Part shown: positions 4,157-26,315 of the stretch, piece by piece | Layout of the letters: the number at the start of each line of letters is the position of its first letter | How positions within the stretch are numbered: position 1 is the stretch's first letter | DNA from: Limnohabitans parvus II-B4 | GTDB taxonomy: Bacteria > Pseudomonadota > Gammaproteobacteria > Burkholderiales > Burkholderiaceae_C | Length of the DNA: 32,000 nucleotides | NCBI RefSeq assembly: GCF_003063455.1 | Contig: NZ_NESN01000005.1 | Location: 99,506-131,505, forward strand | Direction: 5' to 3' | Made by a program: the position numbers and the translations under genes | Notes under the pieces: generated by a model | Told to the model about the DNA's origin: nothing | Database searches by the model: none | What the model saw: only the letters and a program-made list of their open reading frames with translations

Positions 4157-5200
4157 ATGAAAAAAACTCTGATTGCTCTGGCTGCTGTTGCTGCCACCGG
4201 CGCTGCTTTCGCACAATCCACCGTGACTTTGTTCGGCGTGGCTGATACTGCCGTTACCTACACAAAAACAGGCGCAGCTAAGAAGACATCCATGACAACC
4301 AGCGGCCTGAACTCCAGCCGCATCGGTTTCCGTGGTGAAGAAGACTTGGGCGGCGGCATGAAAGCTGCCTTCCACATGGAAGCTGGCGTGAACACTGACA
4401 ACGGCACTGGCGCTGGCACAAACACAAACAACCAAGCTGCTGGTCAAATCGCAGGCACTACAACAGTTGGCTCGCAAGGCCTGACTTTCAACCGTCGCAT
4501 GACTGCCAGCTTGATGGGTGGTTTCGGCGAGTTGCGCGTTGGCCGTGACTACACACCTTTGTTCTGGAACCAGACTGTGTTTGATCCGTTCGGCACCAAC
4601 GGTGTTGGCGCATCGCAAGCCAACGCAGCTGCTAACCCAGCCTCTTTGGTTGTTGGCGTGCGTGCTTCCAACAGCATCGGCTACATGTCACCTTCTTTCA
4701 ACGGCTTCCAAGTCCAGTTGCAAACTTTCTTGGGTGAAAACGCATCCAACGACGCCGCTACCGGTAAAAACTCTGGTTCCGGCAATGGCCTGCGCGCCAC
4801 TTACGCTCAGGGTCCTGTGAGCCTTGCTTTGGCAACTGCCAAGTACGACACAGATTTGAACGTCAAACACGAAGGCACCAACTTCGGCGCTTCTTATGAT
4901 CTGGGCGTTGCCAAGATCATGGCTGTTTACTCGCAAGACCAAGACTCCACAAGCGGCGTTGACGCTGCCAAAGTCAAAGGTACTTTGATTGGCTTGACAG
5001 CTCCCCTGGGTGCTGGTGTTGCCAAGGCTGCATGGTCCAACTCCAAGCAAGGCGCTACAGTTGACACTGACAAATTTGCTGTTGGCTATGTTTACAACTT
5101 GAGCAAGCGTACAAGCATTTACACAACATTTGCTAACACCAAGCCAAAAACTGGCGACAAGACTACAGGTTTCGACCTGGGTCTGTCCCACTCCTTCTAA
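4157..5200 (+). CDS. Gram-negative general porin (Omp32/OmpC-like), the only copy with RBS, ATG and a complete signal peptide
   Basis: GGAGAA RBS at 4145-4150, ATG at 4157. Signal peptide MKKTLIALAAVAATGAAFA|QSTV. Conserved GFRGEEDLGGG motif and C-terminal ...GLSHSF (terminal Phe). The track ORF starting at 3959 is an in-frame upstream extension. Confidence 0.95.
   Translation: MKKTLIALAAVAATGAAFAQSTVTLFGVADTAVTYTKTGAAKKTSMTTSGLNSSRIGFRGEEDLGGGMKAAFHMEAGVNTDNGTGAGTNTNNQAAGQIAGTTTVGSQGLTFNRRMTASLMGGFGELRVGRDYTPLFWNQTVFDPFGTNGVGASQANAAANPASLVVGVRASNSIGYMSPSFNGFQVQLQTFLGENASNDAATGKNSGSGNGLRATYAQGPVSLALATAKYDTDLNVKHEGTNFGASYDLGVAKIMAVYSQDQDSTSGVDAAKVKGTLIGLTAPLGAGVAKAAWSNSKQGATVDTDKFAVGYVYNLSKRTSIYTTFANTKPKTGDKTTGFDLGLSHSF
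4173..4236 (+). repeat. Candidate att core copy 1 (attL-like), inside the signal-peptide codons of the expressed porin
   Basis: 64 bp identical to 11184-11247. The first 25 bp are identical to 25304-25328 and the first 12 bp (TTGCTCTGGCTG) to 18473-18484. All copies are in direct orientation. Confidence 0.6.
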
Positions 5201-5206
5201 TTTGAC

Positions 5207-5272
5207 GCTGGCGCAAGCCAGCTGAGAGTTAAAAGCTTAAAACCCCACCGTGGCAACACGGTGGGTTTTTTC
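5207..5272 (+). terminator. Porin terminator module: GNRA-looped hairpin plus rho-independent terminator
   Basis: GCTGGC-GCAA-GCCAGC at 5207-5222. Then CCCACCGTG-GCAA-CACGGTGGG at 5244-5265, followed by TTTTTT. Confidence 0.85.
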
Positions 5273-5347
5273 TTGCCTGCACGCTGTGCGGCAGTCATGA
5301 AACAACGGTGAGCAAGGGAAAACACTGGTGCTGCACAGTGTTGTTGC

Positions 5348-5356
5348 TGATAAATT
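5348..5356 (+). promoter_or_regulatory. Extended -10-like promoter (TGATAAATT) for the small basic-protein gene
   Basis: The same TGATAAAT motif sits at the same relative position in elements B (12444-12451) and C (19733-19740). It is preceded by the conserved inverted repeat AACACTG...CAGTGTT (5321-5342). Confidence 0.4.
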
Positions 5357-5389
5357 TAACAAATCAACAACACCAACTTGGAGCGAGAC

Positions 5390-5629
5390 ATGGCTACAGC
5401 AGCAGACTTGGCAGCAAAAAAGAAGGCGGCAGAAGATGCAACAGCGGCATATCAAGCAGCAGTTGATGCAGCACGCGAAGAAGATTTGAAGACTGCAAAG
5501 GCACTTATTGAATTGCACGAATTCAAAGTTGCAGACTTGAAGCCTGAACTGAAATTAACACGTACGCCAGCAAAGAAGGCTGCAACTAAAAAGCCTGCAG
5601 CCAAGAAGTCATCACGCCACAAAAGTTGA
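5390..5629 (+). CDS. Small coiled-coil protein with Lys/Ala/Pro/Thr-rich basic tail (resembles an H-NS N-terminal domain but lacks the canonical DNA-binding domain)
   Basis: GGAG RBS then ATG at 5390. The sequence MATAADLAAKKKAAED...ALIELHEFKVADLKPE...TPAKKAATKKPAAKKSSRHKS has paralogs at the same position in elements B and C. Confidence 0.7.
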   Translation: MATAADLAAKKKAAEDATAAYQAAVDAAREEDLKTAKALIELHEFKVADLKPELKLTRTPAKKAATKKPAAKKSSRHKS

Positions 5630-5672
5630 GCGCACTGATGCGCTGCATGCTCAGTACTCAGCGCAGATATGG

Positions 5673-6581
5673 TTGACGCGGATTGCCAAACGCATCGACG
5701 ATCTGCACTATCAAAACTTCCATGTGCCAGTGTTGCAGCACCAAGAGCGTGTGCTGCGCGAAATGGGCTGTAACCAACAGTACCAAGTTGGTCATGTACA
5801 TGCAGACGCTGACTACGTGGATGCACAAGAGCGGTACACATATACAACACCCACTTGGCCTTTGCGTGCAGAGTTGACGGCGCAGCAAGTTCAGCAACTG
5901 CAAGCCATCAACTCAGCAGTACGTGCAGCGCTGCAACACAGGACAATCACACTGTCGCAGCTGCGCCGTGCATTGACACCACAACAGTTGCAAGAGTTTG
6001 CAGCAAGTTTGGCAGATGTGCATGAACCCAGTGAAATCATGTACGGCGGCGGCATGCCAGAACCACTGCGCGACTACAACGCTGCATTGAGAGCAGCAGA
6101 TTTCGCATGGTCAAGATTTGAAGCACAACCAACAACACCAAGACACAACGCACTCAGCGTAAAAAAAGCAGGTGCGAGCATGGAAGATCGCGCCATCAGT
6201 TTATATGAACATGCGATTGAGCGGTTGGCTGACATTTTTACCAGTGCACAGCGTGGTGATTACGGTGCAGGCATGTATGGCGAGTTGCAAACATGGATGG
6301 ACAGAACAGTTGAGTTCGATTCGCTGATGCCGAATGCAGTTGACACCAATCCATATGCAATGCCGCGAGTGCGCGGGAGTAAATCACGTTATGCACAAGA
6401 CTCAGGATTGCCCAAGCTGAGCAAACGCATCAAGCGTGAGTACTGTGCATTGATTTCGCTTCTGGTTGCAGGATGTGAATTGGCGTTTGTGTTACCTGTG
6501 CAGAAACCACAAGCCATGACACATCAAGAACAACAGCAGCAGCGTGACAAGCTTCGCATGCTGTTGCGCAAGCTCAAGTGA
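5673..6581 (+). CDS. Hypothetical protein, 302 aa (paralog of 20103-20990)
   Basis: Long ORF. Shares blocks with the element C paralog: RIDDLHYQNF/RILELEYINY and PRVRGSKSRYAQDSGLPKLSKRIKREYCAL/PRVKGSTSHYALDAGLPKLSVRLKREQCVL. Start codon uncertain (TTG 5673). Confidence 0.65.
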   Translation: MTRIAKRIDDLHYQNFHVPVLQHQERVLREMGCNQQYQVGHVHADADYVDAQERYTYTTPTWPLRAELTAQQVQQLQAINSAVRAALQHRTITLSQLRRALTPQQLQEFAASLADVHEPSEIMYGGGMPEPLRDYNAALRAADFAWSRFEAQPTTPRHNALSVKKAGASMEDRAISLYEHAIERLADIFTSAQRGDYGAGMYGELQTWMDRTVEFDSLMPNAVDTNPYAMPRVRGSKSRYAQDSGLPKLSKRIKREYCALISLLVAGCELAFVLPVQKPQAMTHQEQQQQRDKLRMLLRKLK

Positions 6582-6590
6582 GTGTCGCTG

Positions 6591-7157
6591 TCAAACCATT
6601 TCCACAGCGTTGCGCTTCATGTCGTCGTTGACGTCGATGTATTTTTGGGTCACAGCAATGCTGCGGTGTCCCGCTAACTCAGCCAACACCCGCACGCCAA
6701 TGCCACGTGATGCCAGCAAAGTTATGAATGATCTCCTCATCGAATGTGAGCTGGCTCCAGCAATGCCCGCACGCTTGAACAAGTAGTGAAAGTGCTGCGC
6801 CATCACGTTGGCGCTGAAGCGCTTGCGCCCCGCAGTGATGAACAGGGGGTTGGTAGCTGGAACAAGTCCACGCAGGTCCAAGTAGGCTTGCAGTTCATCA
6901 CGAAGCTTCTGCGGCAAGAACACTGTGCGTGGATGACGTCCCTTGGTCTGCGCCGCAGTGAGGCGTATTTCTGCACGCACACTGCCATCTGTGTTGCGCA
7001 CGTCACCCACTGAGAGACTGGCGATTTCTCCTACGCGAACGCCTGACCACAAGCCTGTCAAAAACATCACTCTATTGCGCATGGCGTAGCTGCGCGGTTG
7101 GATGTATTGCAGCACTTGTTCAATTTCTGCAGGGGTCAGTGTTTTGGCTTGGCTCAT
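6591..7157 (-). CDS. Small (about 188 aa) tyrosine recombinase, catalytic domain only, FimB/FimE-like size
   Basis: Catalytic residue contexts: GVRVGEI (Arg), HSMRRSF (His-x-x-Arg), LAGHRSIAVTQKY (His and Tyr). Start chosen at MSQAKTLT by alignment with the B and C paralogs (MAQAK, MAAAK). Confidence 0.85.
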   Translation of the reverse strand: MSQAKTLTPAEIEQVLQYIQPRSYAMRNRVMFLTGLWSGVRVGEIASLSVGDVRNTDGSVRAEIRLTAAQTKGRHPRTVFLPQKLRDELQAYLDLRGLVPATNPLFITAGRKRFSANVMAQHFHYLFKRAGIAGASSHSMRRSFITLLASRGIGVRVLAELAGHRSIAVTQKYIDVNDDMKRNAVEMV

Positions 7158-7474
7158 GGTGTGTTGGGTGTTTTTCAAATCGTTGCAGTCCTTTTAGTGT
7201 GTTTGGTTTGATGTTTTTGGGCGACCAATGCCCCGAAAAAATCACGGGGCAAATTTCCGTAATGATTTCAACCAGGTAAACCTAATCGTGATTTCATTTG
7301 GTGCTGTATTTATGTCGCGCCGCATGCAAGTTGTGCGAACTGCGCTACATCTCGCCAGCGATTGCATAAAACAGCGCTGCAGCGCTTGTGCGGAGTTCCA
7401 GCTACGTGGGGTGCTGGACTGGCGTGATCGCTGCGCACAGCGCTGATTTGAGGTGTGGGCTGCTGTAGTGTGAG

Positions 7475-7509
7475 CACTGCGCCAGCAAGACGGGACTGCT
7501 GGCGCAGTG
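7475..7509. repeat. Perfect 13-bp-stem hairpin (CACTGCGCCAGCA-N9-TGCTGGCGCAGTG)
   Basis: Read directly. Lies in the 430-bp noncoding gap between the small recombinase and the 118-aa ORF. Confidence 0.6.
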
Positions 7510-7612
7510 TCCACACATGCATGCATGCCCCGCAGGGTACACGGGTTACAGGTCGCACGTGAGCACAAGAGAGTCAACACTGCGCTGATGTTCTACATCT
7601 AAACGCACTGAA

Positions 7613-7969
7613 ATGAATGAATTTGAACCAGCCCAACTCGATCTGTTCACAGGCACTGAGCGCTACTACCGTATCACTCGCAGGTGCTTGCTAACAGATG
7701 GCACCAAATACCTCGCAGATGCAGCAGGTGCCTATTGGCTCATGGATGCCATTGCCAGCCATTTGCATGAAATTGGAACTGCGGATTGGTTTGTGCTCGT
7801 GCGCATGCATGTAACCAACACTCATGCGGTCATGACCTACGAGGATGGTCGTGGTCATGAGCACGCAACTCAAGTGATTGGCTACACAGACTTTCCCATG
7901 GCTTCAGTGACCATTTACGCCTGCTGGGACAGTGAGCATTGGGTGCTGATGTTGCCCACTGAGTATTGA
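7613..7969 (+). CDS. Hypothetical protein, DUF6876-like (family common on plasmids and ICEs), present in element A only
   Basis: 118-aa ORF. LTDGTKYLADAAGAYWLMDAIASH and a C-terminal VLMLPTEY resemble my recollection of DUF6876 proteins. Confidence 0.5.
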   Translation: MNEFEPAQLDLFTGTERYYRITRRCLLTDGTKYLADAAGAYWLMDAIASHLHEIGTADWFVLVRMHVTNTHAVMTYEDGRGHEHATQVIGYTDFPMASVTIYACWDSEHWVLMLPTEY

Positions 7970-7984
7970 AGTGATTGCACAAAC

Positions 7985-8395
7985 CCCAAGCGAACTCGCG
8001 TTCGCTGTGCACTCGCATGATGCGTCGCTGTCGCTCTGCATCATGCTCTGCACTGAATTTTTCTTGAGCAGACATGTGAGCAGCTGTGAACGAAGCCGAA
8101 CATCACGCAGTGATGGGAGGGGTATTGGGCTCATTTAGATTAGATTGGACACACGACGGCTATAGCACGAGAGCCACTCTGGTGCTATCAGCCGCCGTGT
8201 CGTGTAGTGTCATTTGAGTTGAGTCGTACTACACGCTCGTAAAAGAGTTTTAAGGGAGGCAGATGTATTGAAACTCCCAGTTGCGCATCGCAACCACTCT
8301 GCGGCATCACCTATTGCTCACACACCTTTACGACGATGTGTGTAGGGCGGGGTCATTAGCCGTCATATTCCAACCCGCGTTTTTGCCATTTTTTG
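7985..8395 (+). ncRNA. Hairpin-rich conserved noncoding element (structured RNA or folded-ssDNA site), copy 1
   Basis: No conserved ORF. Alignable to 22025-22400 with compensatory changes in several stems. The last covarying stem is followed by a T-rich tract on the + strand (GCGGG...CCCGC GTTTTT), which weakly suggests + orientation. Confidence 0.55.
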
Positions 8396-8432
8396 GCGAG
8401 TGACTTACTCGCATGAATTCCTCAGCTGCAGA

Positions 8433-8753
8433 TCAGCCAGCGCTGCCCAATTTCCTTTTGATCAACTTGGCGTATTTGCGCTGAGCTTGTTTGGTGATGT
8501 TCAAGACCTTGAAGCACTGACCTTGCGTGATCTTGCTGCGCTTGGCGCCATTGGCTGCACGCAGAAAATTATTCAGCGTGGCTGCTTGGTTTTGCTCCAG
8601 CAGCTTGACATGATTTTTTAGCGTGTTTGTTGCCAGCTTTTGCGCTTGGAACAGCTCTGCAGTGCCCACATAGATTTGATTGGCGTTGATGCCATTGCTT
8701 TTGAGCCATGCATCTGTCTTCTGCCTGTCCGTGATGTTCTTGAATGTTTCCAT
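8433..8753 (-). CDS. Hypothetical protein, about 106 aa (paralog 22461-22781); one arm of a divergent switch
   Basis: METFKNITDRQKTDAWLKSNGINAN... aligns with MNNYKNFKDDGLTADWLRDNGINVQ... in element C. An ATAAAT hexamer lies 6 nt upstream of the ATG and there is no Shine-Dalgarno sequence. Confidence 0.6.
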   Translation of the reverse strand: METFKNITDRQKTDAWLKSNGINANQIYVGTAELFQAQKLATNTLKNHVKLLEQNQAATLNNFLRAANGAKRSKITQGQCFKVLNITKQAQRKYAKLIKRKLGSAG

Positions 8754-8820
8754 GCAAGTATTTATGAATGCCAAATAAGACCGTGCTTTTTTCGTGGCGA
8801 TATTTGGCATAAATACCTGC

Positions 8821-9009
8821 ATGCAAATACATGAAGTCGTGATCAAGCCCAAAACGCCAGAGCAGCACCGCATTGATACCCTCAAAGCCACCAAAGACAG
8901 GGCAGCGGATGCTCTGGCTGTAGAACGTCAGCGCCAAAAGATCAGCAAGGCGCAGAAGGCAATGAATGCCGCACAGCAGTCAGCCAGCGTCACGCCCAAC
9001 GTCCCGTAA
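8821..9009 (+). CDS. Small hypothetical protein, 62 aa, M-x-I-x-E-[IV] family; other arm of the divergent switch
   Basis: MQIHEVVIKPKTPEQHRIDTLK... resembles MRINEIINTIKPKPPMTPAQSRLNSLK (element C) and MKISEI... (element B). An ATAAAT hexamer lies 6 nt upstream of the ATG. Confidence 0.5.
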   Translation: MQIHEVVIKPKTPEQHRIDTLKATKDRAADALAVERQRQKISKAQKAMNAAQQSASVTPNVP

Positions 9010-9151
9010 CTGGACGTTGAGTGTCGTGCGGCACGTCACCTTGCATCATGCGCAGCACATGACCCGTCATGTTCGCGGGTTTCTGGTCGCTGATGCCATC
9101 AAATGATCACAAAATTGTCTGTGCTTTACAAACATTTGAAAGGAAGAGCAC

Positions 9152-9595
9152 ATGACAGCCATTTTGAACACACTCAAATTGACCGCAGCACGCAAAACCC
9201 GTGCACTGCCCACAGTGGTCAAGCGTCGCAACAAACTCTTGATCAAACTGGGCGAGCAGCGCATGCTGGCAGATGCACAGGCGCAAGGACTGCATTACAC
9301 CCCCACACGTTACCGCTCATTCAAAGACGCTGACACTGGCGCACGCATCGCCAAACAAGTACCTGTTCGCATCAAGCCATGGTTTTGGATTGGGGAAAAG
9401 GGAGAGTGCTTGCTGGCAATCAACTACGGCAGCAAGCAAATTGAACTGCAAAAAGGAAAAACTGCCATTGACGTGGGTGACGTTGCAAACCTGTGTGCCG
9501 TGCTGGACACAGTGATTGACGCTGTGAAAAACGGTGAACTTGATCCGCAGATTGAGTCAGCCAGCGTGAAACTGCGCGAAGGCTTCAAGAAATAA
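9152..9595 (+). CDS. Conserved 147-aa integrase-associated hypothetical protein
   Basis: AAAGGAAG RBS. Near-identical paralogs at 16428-16871 and 23264-23707. Convergent with the integrase, and its 3' end overlaps the integrase 3' end. Confidence 0.8.
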   Translation: MTAILNTLKLTAARKTRALPTVVKRRNKLLIKLGEQRMLADAQAQGLHYTPTRYRSFKDADTGARIAKQVPVRIKPWFWIGEKGECLLAINYGSKQIELQKGKTAIDVGDVANLCAVLDTVIDAVKNGELDPQIESASVKLREGFKK

Positions 9596-10940
9596 CGGAT
9601 GGGCTGTGCTGACGAGTCCTGCGACTTTGCAGCATGCCAATGTTCTGCTCGCCCGTTACCGTGCTGGCGTAGTGCTGGTTGATCATGTCCACACTGGTGC
9701 GTGCATTGCGTGCCAGTGTCAGCAAGTCAATGCCTTGTCCGTATAGCAAACGGAAGGTGATGCTGGAATGGCGCAGACTGTACAAGCTGCGCTCTTGTCC
9801 GTGCGCACCCAACTTCAACCCAGTGCGTGCCAAAACCCAGTTGAAATAAAACGCCAGCACCCAGTGCGCATAAGCACGATCACGCAAGTACGGCAGGAAC
9901 AGGTAGTTGTCTGGTGCTGCAAGGTTCTGTGCGCTGTAGTGCTGCGTGATCTGTTGATAGATGCGCACTGCAGGCTGCAGCGTGACGATGGGGCGTGAGT
10001 GGCTTTTTGTTTTGGGCAAGTTCAGGCGCAGGTAAGTGTTGTCATTGCGCACCACTTCTACGTGTCTGTGCTTGAGGGTTTTCAAATCGCTTGGGCGTAT
10101 GAAGCTGTTGACCATAAAACCAATGCACCACGCAACATCTGGCGGCATGGTGTACTCAGCTGAGCGCAAACGGTAGTTTTTGCGCAGTGTGCTGTCGCTG
10201 TCAGGGTGTCTGGTGTGCTGCAGCTTGCGAGCAGTGCGCATGATCTGCCAGTATTCAGTGGGTGTAAAAGCGCCGCGACTGTTGGTTTGTACTTTGATCT
10301 TGGGAAACTCTGGCAGCTTGTCCAGCGCATTCACTGCCACAGCCAGTGTCAATATCTTGCGCACAGCAACCAAGTACTGGCTGACGGTGATGGTTGAGAA
10401 ACTCTTGCTCAGGTACTGAGTGAATACCAGCAGTTCAGCGTGATCCACAGCAGCAGGTGATAGTTTGCCCCAGCGCGGCAGTATGTGTGCATCCAGTCTG
10501 TTGCGCAGCACTTTCAAGCTGCCTGCTGAAAACTCACCGCGCTCCACACGAGCTTGTTCGTTTGTGATCATTTGCGCTGCCATTGCAGCAAATGTTTTCT
10601 GGGGTTTGACTGCAGTGGTCGCGAGAGATACGACACCTTGTATTGGCGTTGGTTTAATGCGCAAACTGGCAGACTGCGCCAGCAGTTGCTCGTAAAAGTC
10701 ACGTGCAAAGCTTTGAGCCATGCGCAGGCTTTGCGTCTGTGTGCTGCGTCTGTGTGTGCGTCCTTCAATCCAGCAGCGCACTTGCCAAAACTTGCTGGCA
10801 GCTATTTTGAACACAGATAGTTTGCGGGGATAGCCAGGTACTGGTGTGATGGTCGCAGGAATGGGCACTGTGCGCTCACGTGCTTGAGTGCGTAGCACTG
10901 GGTCGTTGGCTGCAGCTGCGGTAAAAACGGTCAACATCAC
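9585..10940 (-). CDS. Tyrosine-type site-specific integrase (451 aa), element A
   Basis: C-terminal catalytic contexts FIRPSDL (Arg), YSLRHSSITF (Arg-His) and MINQHYAS (Tyr). Paralogs occur in elements B and C. Confidence 0.9.
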   Translation of the reverse strand: MMLTVFTAAAANDPVLRTQARERTVPIPATITPVPGYPRKLSVFKIAASKFWQVRCWIEGRTHRRSTQTQSLRMAQSFARDFYEQLLAQSASLRIKPTPIQGVVSLATTAVKPQKTFAAMAAQMITNEQARVERGEFSAGSLKVLRNRLDAHILPRWGKLSPAAVDHAELLVFTQYLSKSFSTITVSQYLVAVRKILTLAVAVNALDKLPEFPKIKVQTNSRGAFTPTEYWQIMRTARKLQHTRHPDSDSTLRKNYRLRSAEYTMPPDVAWCIGFMVNSFIRPSDLKTLKHRHVEVVRNDNTYLRLNLPKTKSHSRPIVTLQPAVRIYQQITQHYSAQNLAAPDNYLFLPYLRDRAYAHWVLAFYFNWVLARTGLKLGAHGQERSLYSLRHSSITFRLLYGQGIDLLTLARNARTSVDMINQHYASTVTGEQNIGMLQSRRTRQHSPSVIS

Positions 10941-12295: not shown

Positions 12296-12301
12296 TTCCC
12301 C

Positions 12302-12364: not shown

Positions 12365-12443
12365 ATTGGCTGAACGCTGTGCGTTGCAGTCAGCAAATAA
12401 CTGCACTCAAGGGAAAACACTGGTGCAGTGTTGGTGATGTTGC

Positions 12444-18472: not shown

Positions 18473-19581
18473 TTGCTCTGGCTGTTTTGACAGCTTCTGG
18501 CATTTCTTTCGCTCAATCTTCCGTGAGCATTTACGGTCGCCTTGATGTTGGCATGAACAACCAAAAGACAACTGGTACCACCACTATTGGTAGTGCTTCA
18601 ACTTCTACCTTTTACAAAGGCAACAACCTTGTGAATGAAGACGGTCTGTCGACAGGTCTCCTGGGCTTCAAGGGCACTGAAGACTTGGGCGGTGGCTTGA
18701 AGGCCAACTTCGTCCACGAAATGGACTTGGACTTGGACGTTGGCGCACTGGGCGTTGCCGCTGGTCGTGATTCAACTCTGGGCTTGTCTGGTGGTTTCGG
18801 CGAAATTCGCTTGGGCCGTTCATACACGCCTTTGTACTCCACCATTGGTGCCTCAGACGTTTTTGGCACAACAGGTGCTGGCACGGTCAACCAGTTCGGT
18901 ATGGCAGCTAATGCAGTTCGTGCTTCCAATGCATTCTTCTATGCATCACCTTCATTCAGCGGTTTGACCGTTCGCTTGATGGCCCAGCAAAACAATGCAC
19001 AAACAAACGCATCTGTTGGCGGAGCTGGTAAAACATCTGGCAACGGTTTTTCTGTGACCTACGCAGCAGGTCCTTTGATGTTGGCAGCAGCTACAGGCAC
19101 TGAAAAAGGTTCTTCTATTGACCGCGCTGGAGCCTTGTTCGCAGCAACTGCTGCAGCTGCAACTACAGCAGGAACAGCAACAGCAAACGCTAATGCCAAG
19201 TACACAGGTTCTGCCATTTCTGGTCAGTACGACATGGGTGTTGCCAAGTTCTTTGTTGGTTACACAACCACCAAGGATGACAACGACACGTCCGTTGCTG
19301 GCGGCGAGTTGACTATGAAAGAAACCAACTTTGGTGTTGCCGTACCAATGGGTGCATTGACATTGATGGCTGCTGTTGGCAACAACAAAGGTTCTATGGC
19401 AGGTGAACCAGTCACTGCCAAAGGTACTGACATGGCTGTTGGTGCAACCTATGCTTTGAGCAAGCGCACCACTGCTTACTTCAAGACTGGTACTTACAAC
19501 AAGTACAAAGCTTCTGATGTTGGTGGTTCTGAAGAAGTTAAGACAACCCGTACCAGCGTTGGCCTGCGTCACCTTTTCTAA
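18466..19581 (+). CDS. Porin, full-length but start-less and promoter-less copy 3 (most divergent)
   Basis: The frame is open from 18466, after an in-frame TAA at 18463-18465. It encodes AFVALAVLTASGISFA|QSSVSIYG..., then GTEDLGGG, and ends GLRHLF. The only candidate starts (TTG 18487, CTG) would give a signal peptide with no charged N-region. Confidence 0.8.
   Translation, partial: AFVALAVLTASGISFAQSSVSIYGRLDVGMNNQKTTGTTTIGSASTSTFYKGNNLVNEDGLSTGLLGFKGTEDLGGGLKANFVHEMDLDLDVGALGVAAGRDSTLGLSGGFGEIRLGRSYTPLYSTIGASDVFGTTGAGTVNQFGMAANAVRASNAFFYASPSFSGLTVRLMAQQNNAQTNASVGGAGKTSGNGFSVTYAAGPLMLAAATGTEKGSSIDRAGALFAATAAAATTAGTATANANAKYTGSAISGQYDMGVAKFFVGYTTTKDDNDTSVAGGELTMKETNFGVAVPMGALTLMAAVGNNKGSMAGEPVTAKGTDMAVGATYALSKRTTAYFKTGTYNKYKASDVGGSEEVKTTRTSVGLRHLF
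18473..18484 (+). repeat. Candidate att core copy 3 (12-bp TTGCTCTGGCTG)
   Basis: This 12-mer is the only stretch shared perfectly by all four porin 5' ends. Confidence 0.5.
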
Positions 19582-19587
19582 TCCCCT

Positions 19588-19656
19588 GCTGTCGTAAGAC
19601 AGCTTGAGATTTCGAAGAAATAAAAAACCCACCGTGGCAACACGGTGGGTTTTTTT
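19588..19656 (+). terminator. Porin terminator module, copy 3
   Basis: GCTGTC-GTAA-GACAGC at 19588-19603, with a compensatory G:C to T:A change relative to the other copies. CCCACCGTG-GCAA-CACGGTGGG at 19628-19649, then TTTTTTT. Confidence 0.85.
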
Positions 19657-19732
19657 GTTGCACATGCTGGCGCAGTCGCCACGAAACAACTGCACACAAG
19701 GGCAAACACTGATGCAGTGCTTGTGTCGCAAC

Positions 19733-19740
19733 TGATAAAT
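19733..19740 (+). promoter_or_regulatory. Extended -10-like promoter TGATAAAT, element C
   Basis: Positional homolog of 5348-5356. Confidence 0.35.
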
Positions 19741-19774
19741 TGACAGTATCAAACATCACAATCTGGAGTTGAAT

Positions 19775-20059
19775 ATGTCGGCAGAAAAACTTGATCCACG
19801 TGCAGCATTGGCAAAGATGGAAGCGGACGAAAAGTTGGCACGTGATGCTGCAGAAAATTTAAAAGTAGAAAATCAAAAGAAACGGAAAGAGTTGTTGGCG
19901 AGTTTGAAAGAAGCGGACTTGGCTGATGTGCGTGAGAAATGTAAATTGCACGGATTCAACGCAACAGACCTGCGCGGCTATTTGAAAGTAAAGGGGGCTA
20001 AAACTGCAACGCCTCGAAAAAGTACAGCAAAGAAAACCACAACTAAAAAAGCTTCATAA
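19775..20059 (+). CDS. Small coiled-coil protein with basic tail, element C paralog
   Basis: GGAG RBS then ATG at 19775. Sequence MSAEKLDPRAALAKMEADEKLARD...KCKLHGFNATDLRGYL...TPRKSTAKKTTTKKAS. Confidence 0.7.
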   Translation: MSAEKLDPRAALAKMEADEKLARDAAENLKVENQKKRKELLASLKEADLADVREKCKLHGFNATDLRGYLKVKGAKTATPRKSTAKKTTTKKAS

Positions 20060-20102
20060 CCAGTACGATGTTTTAGTTGAACAATACACTACGCAAAATC
20101 TC

Positions 20103-20990
20103 GTGCGTAGTGTGGTTGCGAGAATATTGGAACTTGAATACATCAACTACAGCATTCCACAACGCTTTGACACAGCAACTGACACGGTAGAAGACAGCAA
20201 CGGGCTTCGTGTGTGGATTGATTTTGAAGCAGAGCAACGTGCTGCAGACAGCGAAGTAGCAGATGAAGTAGCCGCTGCTGCGCTGACATGGCAGTTCAAG
20301 GATGAACTAACTGCTGATGAGTACAACAGGCTCGCGCTGCTGAACAAACTGCTGACGCAGCAACTGAACGGCAAGACTGTAGGCAAAGCTACGATTGAAC
20401 GAGCACTGATGGGAGGTGAGTTTGCTGACTACGAACACAGTTTGACGCAGCCAATTACATCAGCAGAGTTGCTCTACGCTGAAGGCGTGCCTGATGTGCT
20501 CAAACGCTACAACATCAAGTTGCGTGAAGCAGACTTCCAGTACAACAAGTACGAGCGGCTGGCAGACTTGAAAAGTGTTGGACGTGCGAATTACAAACGC
20601 GACACACTATCTAAAACGTACAACAAGTCAGAACACTTGTATGAACTCGCACTGGAATACTTGCAGGAGCAGATTGAGCTGTCGCAGCAAAATGGAGAAG
20701 GTGACAGGTTGACGCGATGGCTTGACCGTGACGTTGACTTTACTACGGCAGGAAATCTTGGTATTGATGTTGACGGAGTGCCGCGAGTTAAAGGCAGCAC
20801 CAGTCACTACGCACTTGACGCTGGTTTGCCCAAGCTCAGTGTGCGCTTAAAGCGTGAACAATGTGTGCTGCAGAGCTTGCTGCGTGCCGCAGTAGCGTGT
20901 GCGTATGTGCCAGAAGTTGTTGCAGTGGTGCAGGTGCAGCCAAAGTTGAAGACGCTTGACATGAGCAAGCTACATCCAGAGCGTGATTAA
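20103..20990 (+). CDS. Hypothetical protein, 295 aa (paralog of 5673-6581)
   Basis: Shared sequence blocks with the element A protein. The GTG start at 20103 lies inside the 9-bp-stem hairpin CACTACGCA-N8-TGCGTAGTG (20087-20112). Confidence 0.65.
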   Translation: MRSVVARILELEYINYSIPQRFDTATDTVEDSNGLRVWIDFEAEQRAADSEVADEVAAAALTWQFKDELTADEYNRLALLNKLLTQQLNGKTVGKATIERALMGGEFADYEHSLTQPITSAELLYAEGVPDVLKRYNIKLREADFQYNKYERLADLKSVGRANYKRDTLSKTYNKSEHLYELALEYLQEQIELSQQNGEGDRLTRWLDRDVDFTTAGNLGIDVDGVPRVKGSTSHYALDAGLPKLSVRLKREQCVLQSLLRAAVACAYVPEVVAVVQVQPKLKTLDMSKLHPERD

Positions 20991-21559
20991 ACCAACTCAA
21001 CAGCACGGCGTTTGACGTCATCGTTGACTGAAACATAACGCTGCGTTGTTGTGATGCTCTTATGCCCCGCCAGTGCAGCAAGTACGAACACTGACACGCC
21101 TTTGCCAGCCAATGAAGTCAGGAAAAATTTGCGACCACTGTGTGAACTTGCACCTTTGATGCCTGCATTCCTGTACATCCAGTAAAAATACTGTGTCAAT
21201 GTGTTGGCACTGAATGGACGGCGTGGACCGCGATGTGTTGTGAACAAGGGCTGCTCAATGTCAATCCATTTGCGTGAGTGAATATACGCAGCAAGTTCAG
21301 TGCACAGCAGGTTGTTTAAGAACACAGTGCGAGCGTGTCCGTGTTTGACGCGATGTGCTGCCAGTAGAACTTCGCTGCGCAGCGTGCCATCGTTGTCCAG
21401 CACATCGCTCAGTTTCAAATCAGCAACTTCGCTCACACGCATGCCTGCGTTGGTTGTGAGTAAGAACATCATGCGATTGCGTACTGCGTTGGCGTTGACT
21501 GCGATGTACGCAAGTGCTCGTTCAATTTCTGCATGTGTCAATGATTTTGCTGCTGCCAT
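20987..21559 (-). CDS. Small (about 190 aa) tyrosine recombinase, element C paralog
   Basis: GGAGA RBS then ATG at 21559 (MAAAKSLTHAEIERALAYI). Catalytic contexts GMRVSEV, HSGRKFF, LAGHKSITTTQRY. The longer track ORF (to 21688) is an upstream extension. Confidence 0.85.
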   Translation of the reverse strand: MAAAKSLTHAEIERALAYIAVNANAVRNRMMFLLTTNAGMRVSEVADLKLSDVLDNDGTLRSEVLLAAHRVKHGHARTVFLNNLLCTELAAYIHSRKWIDIEQPLFTTHRGPRRPFSANTLTQYFYWMYRNAGIKGASSHSGRKFFLTSLAGKGVSVFVLAALAGHKSITTTQRYVSVNDDVKRRAVELV

Positions 21560-22024
21560 GTTGTTCTCCAAATAATGTTGCTGATTTAAGTATGTTGTCT
21601 TTGGTGCTGGTTGGACAAGAAAAACCTGATGTATTGGCGGTGTATTGGTGATCTGTTGAATAACAAGCGGTTGTTGTGCCGTCCACACAGTTCATGCATT
21701 CTCTTATCTCGTGTATTTATTCATCGCACTGTGCAGTTGAGCAGCGTTTGACGTGCAAGCAGGTGCAGACTGCGTAAAACGCCCTACAGCGCACTGACAG
21801 CAGCGCCAGCATCGCAACGGGCAAGGCGCACCAAACGAACGCTTGTGCGTTGGATTTGACGTGCTGCTGCGTGTTGCTGCCCAAATCTCATCTGCTGCCA
21901 CAAAAAATCTGCTGCGTAATTTCTGCGTGGTTGCGAGATCTCGATTGTTGGTGATTTGCTCTAACACTGGTGTTGAACAAGAGTGTGGTCATACTTTCGT
22001 ATGACCTGTGTTGTTCTGTGCTGT

Positions 22025-22400
22025 GTAGAGCGAACTTGACGTTCGCTTGTGTGTCGCTTGTCGCTCACACAAGTTGCTTCGCATTCGTGTGTGATAACTG
22101 AACTGATGAATGAAAGCCGAACAGCACGAAGTGATGTGAGGGGTATTGGGTTGATTTAGATTGAACGAGCGCACGACGGCTATAGCACGAGAAAAAATCT
22201 TGGTGCTATTAGCCGCCGTTTCGCATAGTTTGATTTGAGTATCACTTCACTACACGACTGCAATAGAGTTTCTTGGAAGACTGATGTATTGAAACTTCCA
22301 GTTGCATCACGCAACTACTCTGTGGCATCACCTATGGATCACACGCTATTGCAACAACGTGTGTAGGGCAGGGTCATTAGCCGTCATATTCCCCCCTGCG
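22025..22400 (+). ncRNA. Hairpin-rich conserved noncoding element, copy 2
   Basis: Aligns with 7985-8395. Stems are preserved by compensatory substitutions. No conserved ORF. Confidence 0.55.
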
Positions 22401-22460
22401 TTTGTTCCCTTTGTTGGCAAGTGGATAATCTTGCGTTGAATGTGTGTGTGAATGCTGCTG

Positions 22461-22781
22461 TTAAACAGCTTGACGCTGGCGTCTGCGCTGTTTGTACAAG
22501 CCACGCTTGACACGTGCGCAGAGATTGAGAACGCTGTAGCACAGACCGTCCGTGATCTTGCCACGCTTGTTGTTGTCCGCGTAGCAACGCCTGAAGTGTT
22601 CCAGCAGCCGTTTGCTTGCGTTGTCCAGTTGCGCACTGTGTTGCTCAAGCAGGTGCGTTGCCGCTTGTTGTGCCTGTAGCGTTTTGGCGTTGGTGCTGGC
22701 GAATGTTTGTACGTTGATGCCGTTGTCACGCAGCCAGTCCGCTGTAAGTCCGTCATCTTTGAAGTTCTTGTAGTTGTTCAT
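22461..22781 (-). CDS. Hypothetical protein, about 106 aa (paralog of 8433-8753)
   Basis: MNNYKNFKDDGLTADWLRDNGINVQ.... A CTAAAT hexamer lies 6 nt upstream of the ATG. Confidence 0.6.
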   Translation of the reverse strand: MNNYKNFKDDGLTADWLRDNGINVQTFASTNAKTLQAQQAATHLLEQHSAQLDNASKRLLEHFRRCYADNNKRGKITDGLCYSVLNLCARVKRGLYKQRRRQRQAV

Positions 22782-22863
22782 GCAGTTATTTAGCATCGAC
22801 AAAAGAAATGCCTGCAAATAATGGCTGAATATTTGGAGAGAACAAGTTGCTGGTAAATACAGT

Positions 22864-23055
22864 ATGCGGATCAATGAAATCATCAACACCATCAAGCCCA
22901 AGCCACCCATGACGCCAGCGCAGTCAAGACTAAACAGTTTGAAGCAAGGGGTGCAGCGCAGTCAACAACAACTGCAAGCAGAGCGTGAGCAGCAAAGGCA
23001 AAAGAAGGCGAGTGAAAAACAAGCGGATCTGACACGTCAAGCCGCAACACTGTAA
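22864..23055 (+). CDS. Small hypothetical protein, 63 aa, M-x-I-x-E-I family
   Basis: MRINEIINTIKPKPPMTPAQSRLNSLK.... A TAAATA motif lies immediately upstream of the ATG. Confidence 0.5.
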   Translation: MRINEIINTIKPKPPMTPAQSRLNSLKQGVQRSQQQLQAEREQQRQKKASEKQADLTRQAATL

Positions 23056-23263
23056 GCATGATCGATGTTGAAACCAGCTAAAAGCGTGGCCAGATCATGA
23101 AAATATCATGCAAAAAATAAATGGTAGACAACACGCATGACAGGCATAGCAAAAATACATTGACCAATACACCGCCAAAAGATCGGTGCATTCAGCAGCG
23201 GTTGTCCAAGATGCAGTGTGAACATAAAGTTGTGGCTGTCAAACGCACACAAAGGAGAAAGCA

Positions 23264-23707
23264 ATGACAGCGATCATGAGCACATTGAAGTTGACAGCGG
23301 CACGCAAAACACGAGCACTGCCAGATGTTGTGAAACGCAGAAATAAACTGCTGATGAAACTGGGTGAGCAGCGCATGTTGGCAGCTGCACAAGCGCAAGG
23401 CGAGCACTACACACCCACTCGACTGCGTTCGTACAAACATGCAGACACTGGAATACGGATCATGAAAGAAGTGCCTGTTCGCATCAAGCCGTGGTATTGG
23501 ACAGGAGAAAAAGGTGAGATGTTGCTGGCCATCAACTACGGCAGCAAACAAATTGAGTTGCAAAAAGGCAAGACAGCGATTGATGTGGGTGAAGCTGCAA
23601 ATCTGTGCAAAGTGTTGGACACCGTGATTGATGCGGTGCGTAATGGTGAATTAGACACGCAGATTGAAAGTGCCAGCGTCAAGTTGCGTGAAGGCTTTAA
23701 GAAATAA
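23264..23707 (+). CDS. Conserved 147-aa integrase-associated hypothetical protein, element C
   Basis: AAAGGAGA RBS. MTAIMSTLKLTAARKTRALPDVVKRRNKLL.... Confidence 0.8.
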   Translation: MTAIMSTLKLTAARKTRALPDVVKRRNKLLMKLGEQRMLAAAQAQGEHYTPTRLRSYKHADTGIRIMKEVPVRIKPWYWTGEKGEMLLAINYGSKQIELQKGKTAIDVGEAANLCKVLDTVIDAVRNGELDTQIESASVKLREGFKK

Positions 23708-23712
23708 CAACT

Positions 23713-25056
23713 TCAAGACGCGGGCAGCTGACGGCTGCGTCTGCTTTGCAGCATGCCAATGTTTTGCTCGCCAGTGACAGTGCTGGCGTAGTGCTGGTTG
23801 ATCATGTCAACACTGGTTCGTGCGTTGCGTGCCAGTGTCAGCAAGTCAATGCCTTGTCCGTACAGCAAGCGAAACGTGATGCTGGAGTGACGCAGGCTGT
23901 ACAAGCTGCGCTCTTGTCCGTGTGCACCCAGTTTAAGTCCTGTCTTGGCCAAAACCCAGTTGAAGTAAAACGCCAAGACCCAGTGTGCGTAGTGACGATC
24001 TTGTAAATGCGGCAAGAACAAGTAATCGTCTGGCTTGGTTAAATCTGTTGCGCTGTAGTGTTTGCACATCTGCTGGTAAATGCGAACAGCAGGTTGCAGC
24101 GTGACAATGGGTTTGGTGTGGCTTTTGGTTTTGGGCAAGTTAAGACGCAGGTAAGTGTTGTCGTTCCGTACCACTTCAACGTGTCTGTGTTTGAGCGTCT
24201 TTAAGTCGCTGGGTCGTATAAAGCTGTTGACCATGAAACCAATGCACCAAGCAACATCAGGTGGCATGGTGTTTTCTGCAGCACGTAGTCTAAAATTCTT
24301 ACGCAGTGCAGTGTCACTGTCTGGATGTCTGGTGTTTTGCAGTTGACGTGCAGTGCGCATGATGCGCCAGTATTCTGTGGGTGTAAATGCGCCGCGACTG
24401 TTGGTTTGCACTTTGATCTTGGGAAACTCTGGCAGCTTGTGCAGTGTGTCAACTGCAACAGCCATGGTCAGTACCTTGCGAACTGCCACCAAGTACTGGC
24501 TGACAGTGATGGTGGAAAAACTCTTGCTCAAGTACTGCGTGAATGACAAAAGCTGTGCGTGATCTACGGCAGAAGCTGGCATCGTGCCCCAGCGCGGCAG
24601 TATGTGTGCATCCAAACGGTTGCGTAGCACTTTGAAACTTCCAGCACTGAATTCACCACGATCAACACGTGCTTGTTCATTGGCCATCATCTGCGCTGCC
24701 AGTGCTGCAAATGTGTGTTGTGGTTTGACAGTGCGTGGTGTGTGCTGCACATCTTCAAGTTTGTTGGTGACAGATGGCGGCAAACTGGCGGACTGCGCTA
24801 GCAGTTGTTCATAAAACGTTCGCGCATAACTTTGAGCCATACGCAGGCTTTGTGTTTGAGTGCTGCGCCTGTGTGTGCGTCCCGCAACCCAGCAGCGCAC
24901 TTGCCAGAACTTGCTGGCAGCGATTTTGAATACTGACAATTTGCGGGGATAGCCTGGCACAGGTGTGATGGTGGCAGGAATGGGCACGGTGCGTTCGCGT
25001 TGTTTGCTGTGCATGAGCGTGTCGTTTGCGGCTTGTGCAGTAGAAAAGGTGTGCAT
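23713..25056 (-). CDS. Tyrosine-type site-specific integrase (447 aa), element C
   Basis: Paralog of the A and B integrases with the same catalytic contexts. Confidence 0.9.
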   Translation of the reverse strand: MHTFSTAQAANDTLMHSKQRERTVPIPATITPVPGYPRKLSVFKIAASKFWQVRCWVAGRTHRRSTQTQSLRMAQSYARTFYEQLLAQSASLPPSVTNKLEDVQHTPRTVKPQHTFAALAAQMMANEQARVDRGEFSAGSFKVLRNRLDAHILPRWGTMPASAVDHAQLLSFTQYLSKSFSTITVSQYLVAVRKVLTMAVAVDTLHKLPEFPKIKVQTNSRGAFTPTEYWRIMRTARQLQNTRHPDSDTALRKNFRLRAAENTMPPDVAWCIGFMVNSFIRPSDLKTLKHRHVEVVRNDNTYLRLNLPKTKSHTKPIVTLQPAVRIYQQMCKHYSATDLTKPDDYLFLPHLQDRHYAHWVLAFYFNWVLAKTGLKLGAHGQERSLYSLRHSSITFRLLYGQGIDLLTLARNARTSVDMINQHYASTVTGEQNIGMLQSRRSRQLPAS

Positions 25057-25303
25057 TGCTCAAGCGTACTGTTGTACATCGCAAATGCAACCGCACACAG
25101 AAACGCTTGACAGGATTTACGGCTGCAGATTTGCCGTGTCGCTGCCGTGCTGTTCCGTTGCGTGCCGTACAGAAAAACAGTGCAGCTGATGCATGAAAAG
25201 TTGTACACCTGCTGATGTGCAACAAGGGTCAGTTGCAGTGTGGTTGTACCTTGGTGCGCCCTCGATAACCTTTCGGATACTTGATGGAAAAATAAAACAT
25301 TGT
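25057..25303. promoter_or_regulatory. Conserved arm, junction C/porin 4 (attR-like)
   Basis: GTTGTACA at 25071-25078 and 25200-25207, 129 bp apart. Confidence 0.55.
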
Positions 25304-26244
25304 TTGCTCTGGCTGCTGTTGCTGCCACTTCCGCTTTCGCTCAATCCACCGTGACTATGTACGGCGTGGTTGACGCTGGTATCACTAAAGGCGCTACTAC
25401 AACCACCTTCACAGGCGGCGGTATCAACGCTACTCCACGTCTGGGTTTCAAAGGCGAAGAAGACCTGGGTGGCGGCTTGAAGGCTGTGTTTCAAGTCGAA
25501 ACAGGTCTGAACAGCGGCAAAGAAGCTGCTTCTTCCATCGGTGACCGTGGCGCCTTCGTGGGCTTGACTGGTGCTTTCGGTACCGTGACCATGGGTTCCA
25601 GCGTCCTGACACCTTCGTTTTACGCTCGTGCTGCAACTGACCCATCTACAACCAACAACTACAGCATTGTCAAGTACGCTGGCGCTGCTCGTTTGGACAA
25701 CAGCATCAACTACACCAGCCCAGTTTGGAATGGTTTGACTGTGCGTGCCTCGATGGTGCAGAAAAATGACAACACTGCAAACAGCGCAAGCAAAGGTGCT
25801 AACGACATTTCTGCTGTGTATGCAAACGGTCCTTTGACATTGGCTGCTTCTGCTTCTAACAGCGGTTACGACAAGGGCAACTTCGTTGGTGCTGCTTATG
25901 ATCTGGGCATGGTTAAGCTGTTTGCCAACTCGGTAAAAGTTGCTGGTACTGCTGCTGTAGCTTACGTTGCCAGCAACATTGCTGACGACACAACAGCTAA
26001 CACAGCTGGCTCCGAAGATGTGGCTGCCACAGCTTCTGCCAAGTACACCAGCTACGGCGTGTCCGCACCTTTCGGCGCTTGGACTCTGCAAGCCGACATG
26101 CGCACAAAGAAAGGCGCAGCTGATGACACATACGTTTTGTCCGCACAATACGCTCTGAGCAAGCGCACCAGCTTCACCGCCTACACAGCTAAGACTGAAG
26201 GCGCAAAAGCTGCACTGGGTGCTGGCGTTCGCCACAACTTCTAA
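25300..26244 (+). CDS. Porin, full-length but start-less copy 4; candidate ancestral resident porin displaced from its promoter
   Basis: The frame is open from 25285, after an in-frame TGA at 25282-25284. It encodes KNKTLFALAAVAATSAFA|QSTVTMYG..., then GEEDLGGG, and ends GVRHNF. The nearby ATG at 25284 is out of frame (ATG GAA AAA TAA). High-GC host DNA follows directly. Confidence 0.8.
   Translation: MFALAAVAATSAFAQSTVTMYGVVDAGITKGATTTTFTGGGINATPRLGFKGEEDLGGGLKAVFQVETGLNSGKEAASSIGDRGAFVGLTGAFGTVTMGSSVLTPSFYARAATDPSTTNNYSIVKYAGAARLDNSINYTSPVWNGLTVRASMVQKNDNTANSASKGANDISAVYANGPLTLAASASNSGYDKGNFVGAAYDLGMVKLFANSVKVAGTAAVAYVASNIADDTTANTAGSEDVAATASAKYTSYGVSAPFGAWTLQADMRTKKGAADDTYVLSAQYALSKRTSFTAYTAKTEGAKAALGAGVRHNF
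25304..25328 (+). repeat. Candidate att core copy 4 (attR-like)
   Basis: 25/25 identical to 4173-4197. Confidence 0.55.
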
Positions 26245-26250
26245 TTCCCC

Positions 26251-26315
26251 GCTGGCGCAAGCCAGTTGAGGTTTAAAAGACTAAAAACCCACCGTGGCAA
26301 CACGGTGGGTTTTTT
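26251..26315 (+). terminator. Porin terminator module, copy 4
   Basis: GCTGGC-GCAA-GCCAGT at 26251-26266, where one G:U wobble is valid only on the + strand RNA. CCCACCGTG-GCAA-CACGGTGGG at 26288-26309, then TTTTT. Confidence 0.85.

Follow-up and report, generated by a model that had tools for sequence, protein, structure and literature searches.

Layout of the porin array

The window analyzed here is a stretch of 32,000 nt of Limnohabitans parvus II-B4 (NZ_NESN01000005.1, positions 99,506-131,505), and the subject is an array of porin genes interleaved with integrase genes, for which a serial integration of mobile elements had been proposed in an earlier note (in the following, the original prediction). 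Four Omp32-type porin open reading frames (ORFs) lie between coq7 and a Bug/TctC gene, all on the plus strand and about 7 kb apart, with spacings of 7011, 7289 and 6831 nt from 5' end to 5' end. Every interval closes with a DUF6641 gene, a minus-strand integrase gene (~450 aa) and a conserved arm of 243-247 nt. The basic observation of the original prediction, i.e. four porins, three integrases, three arms and a core sequence at every porin 5' end, was confirmed.

Porin 1 (4157..5200), porin 2 (11186..12295), porin 3 (18475..19581) and porin 4 (25306..26244; the last of the array) all match the Porin_4 family (PF13609), with E-values in the range of 1e-36 to 1e-55 (7e-55, 5e-50 and 3e-36 for porins 1, 2 and 4, respectively); porin 1 also matches Omp32 (PDB 1e54; E 2e-37). 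The pairwise protein identity among the four porins is only 31-40%, with large indels between conserved blocks. The segment upstream of the first core (3810..4172, plus strand) comprises the host porin promoter region, the 5' untranslated region (UTR), a ribosome-binding site (RBS; GGAGAA, 4145-4150), the ATG at 4157 and the first five codons (MKKTL), and represents the predicted host half of an attachment site, attL. When the upstream sequences were read, the GGAGAA, the ATG and unique upstream DNA were found for porin 1 only, as had been claimed, and an arm precedes the other three cores. Porin 1 is full-length, has a normal signal peptide and continues in frame from the host ATG and five codons, and the target gene would thus be reconstituted after integration. 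Porins 2, 3 and 4 are intact and start-less: an in-frame TGA is located 18 nt before the core of porin 2 and a TAA 9 nt before that of porin 3, and neither porin has a usable start that would yield a signal peptide; the sole candidate start of porin 4 is a TTG at 25300, without a charged N-region. Porin 1 is presumably the only porin expressed, and porins 2-4 would be silent.

The 12-nt core TTGCTCTGGCTG occurs as an exact match at 4173..4184, 11184..11195, 18473..18484 and 25304..25315 (all plus strand), i.e. as the direct sequence that had been described at all four porin 5' ends; this count was reached in none of 100 shuffles. The first copy falls on codons 6-9 of the signal peptide and represents the putative crossover region of attL.

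Integrase 1 (9585..10940, minus strand; 450/451 aa) is 100% identical to the NCBI entry 'site-specific integrase [Limnohabitans parvus]' and matches phrog_1 (integrase; E 8e-18). Integrase 2 (16861..18228, minus strand) and integrase 3 (23713..25056, minus strand) are repeats of it; when 300-nt segments were compared, the DNA of the second copy was 87-91% and that of the third copy 76-83% identical to the first. No Pfam match above threshold was obtained for the integrase, and a sequence search of the PDB was empty. A fold search with an AlphaFold2 (AF2) model (mean predicted local distance difference test score, pLDDT, of 62; 70-90 in the catalytic region) returned only tyrosine recombinases (Tn1549 Int, Cre, XerA, lambda Int) with a probability of 1.00, and residues R282, K312, R390, H391, H423 and Y424 are invariant in 26 homologues. 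On the basis of the phrog_1 match, the fold search and the invariant catalytic residues, the integrase is assigned to the tyrosine recombinases.

The arms between integrase start and core (10941..11183, 18229..18472 and 25057..25303, plus strand) measure 243, 244 and 247 nt and align well with each other, in agreement with the conserved arm of ~243 bp in the original prediction. They carry two copies of GTTGTACA-N-TGCAAC, as in arm 1, the putative element-side arm of attR. In the window, the motif pair GTTGTRSA-N6-11-TRCAAC is confined to the arms (5 matches versus 0.07 expected; 10952-11104, 18240-18260 and 25071-25223), with one copy directly upstream of the integrase start, and is a candidate for an arm-type binding site or an operator. 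The 35 nt before the core resemble a mutated, frame-shifted copy of the native porin leader, which appears in arm 1 as a degenerate pseudo-leader.

Core junctions in related loci

The comparative set comprised about 190 related loci (labelled L001 etc.). A coq7-based scan of reference genomes provided 80 loci, 113 integrase copies were inspected on fetched loci, and 88 loci had an integrase of 55-100% identity together with a recognizable core upstream of the integrase start. Exact-protein matches were sought for coq7, porin 1 and integrase 3 and none were found, so there was no second assembly of the strain for comparison.

The divergent arrangement of coq7 and porin is kept in most Comamonadaceae of the coq7 scan. 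The native leader, ATGAAAAAA(T/A)C(T/C)CTGA followed directly by TTGCTCTGGCTG, or a near variant of it, is found in coq7-adjacent porins across the Comamonadaceae, with an integrase nearby or not. For example, an element-free locus of Limnohabitans (L003) has the order coq7, porin, hydrolase gene and Bug gene, with the same leader and core. Since the core within the signal-peptide codons is conserved even in element-free genomes, it would serve as attB. In the 88 loci, 225-340 nt separate the integrase start from a core upstream of it, and the sequence following the core encodes the rest of a porin signal peptide; this distance stays fixed in relatives down to ~60% integrase identity. Short direct-repeat cores at both element ends, one end being beside the integrase, are found in the window (four copies) and in the 88 relatives. 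The attachment site is, as part of the model as a whole, very probably the 12-nt stretch (A)TTGCTCTGGCTG at codons 6-9 of the signal peptide of an Omp32-type porin.

A single element is found between coq7 and the Bug gene in L001, L002, L005, L090, L094 and L112, and complete single elements lie between a coq7-side porin and a second porin in these six loci as well as in L121, L128 and L162. Which of the two porins belongs to the element is indicated by pairs of nearly identical loci. L089 and L100, from the sister samples ERZ1034365 and ERZ1034361, respectively, are 100% identical in the host flank (more than 3 kb) and throughout the integrase-adjacent porin. In arm and integrase, the identity falls to 70-92%, the backbones farther on are unrelated, and the last difference in the arm is located 3 nt before the core. 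Reciprocally, L139 and L140 share a 9.4-kb block of 99.96% identity that includes the coq7-side porin and breaks off ~45 nt beyond the core, where the sequences run on into resident porins of only 38% identity. In four more lineages (L106/107/108, L119/120, L165/167 and the P0105 set), integrase and arm are 98-100% identical and the porins that they abut differ; in the P0105 set, which shares an identical integrase protein, the differences start at core position 6. At attL, the host leaders of the window and of L090 are ~98% identical up to core position 11, and different porins follow. The coq7-side porin was inside the identity block in all three pairs of at least 99% identity that reach it. 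Across 18 complete elements, integrase identity correlated only weakly with the identity of either porin (Spearman 0.30 and 0.27), a result that is therefore uninformative; only the near-identical pairs are decisive.

Because of L089/L100, L139/L140, the further lineages and the attL comparison, the junction between element and host is placed within the core on both sides, and on these sequences the coq7-side porin is the one carried by the element, the integrase-adjacent porin being the resident that was displaced. Presence/absence polymorphism with breakpoints at the core is represented by the empty L003, by both pairs and by the break at attL. The central claim of the original prediction, i.e. 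serial site-specific integration at the core in the porin leader, is supported by the single-element relatives, the empty L003 and the two pairs. It had also been predicted that the displaced porin is left without a start, and this holds for most of the displaced (integrase-adjacent) porins: in 61 of the 88 no in-frame start is present between the upstream stop and the core, and in 20 of the 88 there is a TTG only. Of the displaced porins that are complete on their contig, 47 of 53 have a length of at least 290 aa and a C-terminal Phe. In one relative (L124, 69% identical; ~1260-1520) the arm retains an intact native leader, GGAGAACTTCTCAAATGAAAAAATCCCTAG, with RBS and ATG in the reading frame of the integrase-adjacent porin; where the arms of other relatives were read, the equivalent stretch is mutated or frame-shifted.

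Loci L163-L191, with identical integrase proteins, include many independent assemblies that stop at, or no more than ~25-45 nt past, the boundary of arm and core, their contigs starting 248-257 or 293 nt upstream of the integrase. Assemblies would be expected to stop there if a repeat (attL/attR) or DNA that varies within the population follows.

Occupied porins are also found at other places. L114 and L115 carry two elements, in inverted orientation, in two different porin loci that flank the Bug gene, and in L178 and L186 porins with other genomic surroundings are occupied; because of these loci, any porin with the conserved leader may be a possible target.

With high confidence, the array is thus read as the product of a family of ~7-kb integrative elements that target the porin signal-peptide core, with three complete copies and one decayed copy (see below) in the window. 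Element 1 (4173..11183; 7011 bp) would comprise the body of porin 1, the terminator, the backbone, integrase 1 and arm 1; element 2 (11184..18472; 7289 bp) and element 3 (18473..25303; 6831 bp) follow by repeat spacing, and the boundaries are inferred from the core breakpoints in relatives. In general, an element would consist of a porin body that lacks promoter, RBS, ATG and the first five codons, of a terminator, a variable backbone (small recombinase, DUF6641 and further genes), the integrase, and an arm of ~245 nt. In the circular form, arm, core and porin 5' end together would form attP. A crossover by the integrase in the core would join the porin of the element to the promoter, RBS, ATG and MKKTL of the host, and the resident porin would be stranded behind the arm without a start, an arrangement that is displayed by the comparative junctions; the cell would keep one functional but different major porin. 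Repeated integration would produce a head-to-tail array of silent, intact porins, and excision between direct cores might re-expose the next porin, i.e. a porin switching driven by the integrase. Furthermore, the breakpoints point to recombination at the terminator: within an array, this would re-pair a porin with the next backbone, and where only one element is inserted, backbone, arm, core and resident porin would come out as a circle, such that the element would leave with the old porin of the host and its own porin would stay behind.

Backbone genes, terminators and competing explanations

The backbones start with a gene for a small Lys-rich protein (5390..5629, plus strand; counterparts at 12486-12725 and 19775-20059; no family match) and end with the gene for the DUF6641 protein, which is convergent with the integrase gene (9152..9595, plus strand; PF20346, E 9e-11; phrog_31551, E 2e-27; counterparts at 16428-16871 and 23264-23707) and adjoins it in most relatives with at least 60% integrase identity. 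Element 1 also encodes a 302-aa protein (5673..6581, plus strand; no Pfam/NCBIfam match), with a counterpart in element 3 (20103-20990), and, as the only one of the three, a DUF6876 protein (7613..7969, plus strand; PF21781, E 7e-30). Element 2 is without the DUF6876 protein and the ~300-aa ORF, and has instead a 524-aa ORF (13737..15311, plus strand; no family match) that is found also in L002 and L172; its small recombinase gene is inverted. The 'repeated gene set' of the original prediction can therefore be retained for the integrase and DUF6641, which are common to all three elements, and not for the rest of the backbone, which is only partly alike; backbones are highly variable also among the relatives.

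The small recombinase, a second recombinase (195-233 aa) present in every element, is a feature that the original prediction had missed. It is a tyrosine recombinase of the XerA/XerC-like type that consists of the catalytic domain only (element 1, 6591..7178, minus strand, PF00589, E 5e-27; counterparts at 15634-16242, plus strand, and 20987-21688, minus strand, E 1e-26 and 2e-26). In L172 and similar relatives, a serine resolvase (PF00239) replaces it. Possible roles are resolution, directionality, or the recombination at the terminator.

Several observations weigh against the interpretation as mobile elements that deliver a porin. No transfer, packaging or clear replication gene was recognized in the window ORFs scanned; specifically, 10 backbone ORFs searched against PHROGs, and the window ORFs searched against Pfam and NCBIfam, yielded no phage structural, relaxase, type IV secretion system (T4SS) or recognized replication-initiator gene, and the matches in PHROGs were limited to the integrases, phrog_31551 (unknown function), and one marginal match of unknown function. 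No contig with circular ends was found, and no excised circle, no empty-site read and no within-strain heterogeneity of junctions was seen. In older relatives (element 2, L090 and L002), the coq7-side porin is unlinked to the backbone: from porin stop codon to core the backbones are 92-96% identical (element 2 is 96% identical to L090 and 92-93% to L002), the coq7-side porins are only ~35-37% identical, and the identity stops at the porin stop codon; this alone would fit an attachment site at the terminator. The porin of the sole element-free Limnohabitans locus (L003) shares 52% identity with porin 1 and 33% with porin 4. Finally, the exclusive expression of porin 1 is an assumption.

In the tests for known classes of mobile elements, no relaxase, coupling protein or T4SS match that would indicate an integrative and conjugative or an integrative and mobilizable element was obtained for the window ORFs tested (Pfam, NCBIfam). 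In comparison with phage satellites of the phage-inducible chromosomal island (PICI) type, the size of ~7 kb and the integrase fit, and no packaging genes were recognized. No relatives of the elements were found in IMG/VR or in 50,697 phage records, and a plasmid collection contained only 26%-identical integrases. A search for repeats and iterons in the intergenic regions of the backbones gave nothing convincing; the sole hint of replication is an ATPase resembling replication factor C (RFC)/clamp loaders in the L096-type backbone.

The absence of recognized transfer, packaging and replication genes and of IMG/VR or phage-collection matches would also be compatible with an immobile chromosomal locus for porin phase variation, whose integrases are kept by the host to reorder or delete cassettes; most displaced porins are intact, and direct cores would permit switching by deletion. 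We consider a domesticated locus of this kind improbable in view of the presence/absence polymorphism and the different elements in an identical host background. Moreover, the relatedness of the integrases does not follow that of coq7 or of the hosts, with three integrase lineages in this one genome; the GC content of the elements (43-53%) is low in comparison to the flanks (57-62%); the backbones are highly variable; and other porin loci are occupied too (L114, L115, L178 and L186).

The terminator deserves closer attention in this context. An identical 28-nt terminator follows each of the four porins (5244..5271, plus strand; 12337-12364, 19628-19655 and 26288-26315), another feature that had been missed. 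The porin 3' UTR (window 5201-5305 and equivalents; L003 8470-8615) has two hairpins, of which GCTGGCGCAAGCCAGC is conserved from Limnohabitans to Variovorax, and the terminator is present also in the element-free L003. The first ~130 nt of the backbone (GCAAGGGAAAACAC...GCTGATAAATT) resemble the native DNA downstream of the porin in L003, which suggests that the porin cargo was captured from native loci. The terminator region forms a direct repeat of ~80-120 nt at both ends of each unit, and could be taken as the true site of insertion, i.e. integration at or after the porin terminator of a unit of backbone, integrase, arm and start-less porin, with porin 1 as the native gene and porins 2-4 as permanently silent cargo. 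Besides this repeat, such an integration would account for nearly identical backbones that end at the stop codon of different coq7-side porins, for porin 1 being most like the native porins of element-free genomes, and for the marine integrase relatives (see below) just downstream of a porin 3' end. It was rejected as highly improbable on the two reciprocal natural experiments: in L089/L100, host flank and integrase-adjacent porin form one block of 100% identity that breaks at the core, next to different elements, and in L139/L140 the coq7-side porin is linked to the element. In addition, five near-identical integrase/arm lineages abut different porins, the core keeps its fixed distance to the integrase start down to ~60% integrase identity, and an integration at the terminator would leave unexplained why a mobile element should bring along a porin without any prospect of expression. 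The terminator, being native 3' UTR present in element-free loci, is a possible substrate for ordinary homologous recombination, and on the breakpoints the porin cargo and the backbone of the core-targeting elements would reassort at the conserved terminator in this way. Similar porin alleles are indeed cargo in one genome and resident in another.

A local tandem duplication, i.e. one porin-integrase unit amplified in place by unequal crossing-over and then diverged, would give the head-to-tail layout and the ~7-kb periodicity, but it is effectively refuted, and hardly credible, as element 2 is closer to the L090 element in another genome (96%) than to its neighbors in the array, the units differ by 9-24% in integrase DNA (300-nt segments), by 60-69% in porin protein, in gene content and in small-recombinase orientation, and the relatives are mostly single-copy.

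The integration at the core implies a displaced resident at the far end of the array, and porin 4 had been proposed to be this ancestral gene. This is probably wrong: directly after the porin 4 terminator, and before the Bug gene, there is a remnant of an element gene (ORF300; 26342..26575, minus strand; 78 codons, residues 223-300, 77% identical), which had been overlooked in the original prediction. The full ORF300 adjoins the cargo porin in L096 and L120, in a module with the RFC-like ATPase and a 262-aa protein (a second backbone type); L124 has the same ORF300 module, and this locus ends inside ORF300 before any porin. Behind the last porin of L087, L110 and L092 there are ORF300 remnants of 137, 43 and 40 residues, respectively. 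Because of the element-gene remnant behind it, porin 4 was likely the cargo of a decayed fourth element; the array likely consists of three intact elements plus the stump of this fourth, and the truly ancestral porin has probably been deleted. The test by island-free relatives that had been suggested cannot decide the ancestry by means of the L003 porin, because porin alleles occur in both roles in different genomes.

Relatives of the integrase number 3183 and are mostly from lake metagenomes. On marine metagenome contigs (L134, L144-L147, L153, L154 and L159), integrases of ~60-64% identity follow a co-oriented porin at ~300 nt from its 3' end, instead of being placed upstream of a porin 5' end; because of this position, they may represent a sister integrase lineage that uses the porin 3' end or terminator. 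In five Variovorax loci (L016, L017, L020, L026 and L064; ~11400-13900), an integrase-like ORF is convergent with a second porin across coq7; it has 382 aa in L016, where type II secretion pseudopilin genes follow, and is ~43-46% identical across the five loci. This ORF may be a relic or a domesticated copy.

In the flanks, coq7 (3183..3809, minus strand; PF03232 COQ7, E 1.6e-43) is divergent from the porin on the left, and the gene for the Bug/TctC-family binding protein (26624..27691, minus strand; PF03401, E 3e-65) borders the array on the right. An AAA_14/DUF4143 ATPase gene (1939-3159, plus strand) in the host flank has an 83%-identical copy that adjoins coq7 in L010. Left of coq7, the Rfam family RF02278 ('Betaproteobacteria toxic small RNA') is predicted at 1196-1257 (minus strand), with 54 bits versus a gathering score of 50. 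A promoter scan gave 1 match versus 4.9 expected and was uninformative. In L004, L012, L036 and L078, 3-5 tandem porin paralogues are found beside coq7 with no integrase between them; this porin multiplicity arises without elements, or after their loss.

Relation to known systems and biological meaning

No description of integrative elements that target porins was found in the literature searched. The closest likeness is to islands and prophages that carry a replacement for the displaced part of their target gene (tRNA/tmRNA islands; e14 at icd), in which a tyrosine integrase is encoded beside an attachment site inside a conserved gene, an identity block runs from the crossover toward the gene 3' end, and integration leaves the target gene functional; such islands are also known to occupy one site in tandem. 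The replacement sequences of genomic islands at icd and tRNA genes are identity blocks of up to ~250 bp (PMC10111431). In the porin elements, by contrast, nearly the whole gene would be replaced (~1.0-1.1 kb, everything after codon 5), and by a 31-40%-identical allele rather than a near copy, such that the product is changed and not preserved. Also in contrast to these islands, the porin elements depend on the promoter, RBS and start codon of the host, and the displaced copy is a complete silent gene and not a short fragment. The locus thus follows the known logic of an attP that carries a replacement for the target gene, extended to a whole divergent allele.

Elements of the SXT/R391 type integrate in the 5' end of prfC, with the function of the gene preserved. 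The integration within the first codons of a protein gene is shared with the porin elements, but SXT provides the resident gene with a new promoter and 5' end, whereas here the host provides the 5' end and the element the gene body; among the porin-element relatives, only L124 keeps an intact leader in the arm.

Systems with one expression site and silent cassettes are represented by vsa of Mycoplasma pulmonis, hsdS shufflons, the invertible SusC/D loci of Bacteroides, and pilE/pilS of Neisseria. As in these systems, the porin array would have a single expressed surface gene, the only one with promoter and 5' end, and an archive of silent alleles without 5' ends, and as in the site-specific ones, a tyrosine recombinase would act in the 5' coding region. 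The silent-cassette systems make use of inverted repeats and inversion, or of gene conversion, with one chromosomal recombinase; here, in contrast, the repeats are direct, each cassette would be a mobile element with its own integrase, and switching would proceed by excision and integration. All four cores, the porins and the integrases of the window are in direct orientation, unlike in an invertible system such as a shufflon, vsa or hsdS.

With integrons, the array shares promoterless units that are inserted site-specifically beside a fixed promoter and whose position in the array would set their expression. However, attC hairpins, a single platform integrase and Pc/attI are all absent; the units are ~7 kb in size, each with its own 450-aa integrase, the junctions are formed by a 12-nt core of coding sequence rather than by attC, and the fusion is a translational one inside the signal peptide.

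Phage-encoded porins of lysogenic receptor conversion (e.g. PA-2 Lc, nmpC) are carried by full prophages, and are expressed from their own signals at a separate locus. As with these, a mobile element would alter the major porin of the host, plausibly as a defense against other phages. Among the 10 backbone ORFs searched against PHROGs, however, no match to phage structural, lysis or packaging genes was found, and the porins are start-less and without signals of their own.

The major porin is the main nutrient gate and a common phage receptor, and a strong diversifying pressure on it is to be expected in planktonic bacteria. The payoff of a porin exchange is likely an altered surface with respect to phage receptors, predators or permeability. 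Tentatively, and with less confidence than for the integration itself, the array may be viewed as a working, integrase-driven porin archive, in which excision and re-integration at the core would swap the expressed porin and terminator recombination would export the old one, with whole alleles being traded through freshwater Comamonadaceae as a population-level defense against phages and grazers; this is possible, and not our expectation.

If the elements act as proposed, a dedicated family of mobile elements swaps a whole porin allele in one recombination step. No regulatory rewiring would be needed, since the promoter and signal-peptide start of the host are used, and the old allele would persist, silent and intact. 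For genomic islands, the 'replacement sequence' principle would be widened from preserving a gene to deliberately changing it, and a concrete mechanism would be at hand for the hypervariability of porins, given that closely related hosts carry 31-40%-identical porins. The integrase and its attachment site would also represent a natural pair for producing in-frame fusions at a secretion signal. The family is abundant in lake metagenomes, as reflected by the 3183 integrase relatives, and its ecological effect on phage-host dynamics would therefore be directly testable.

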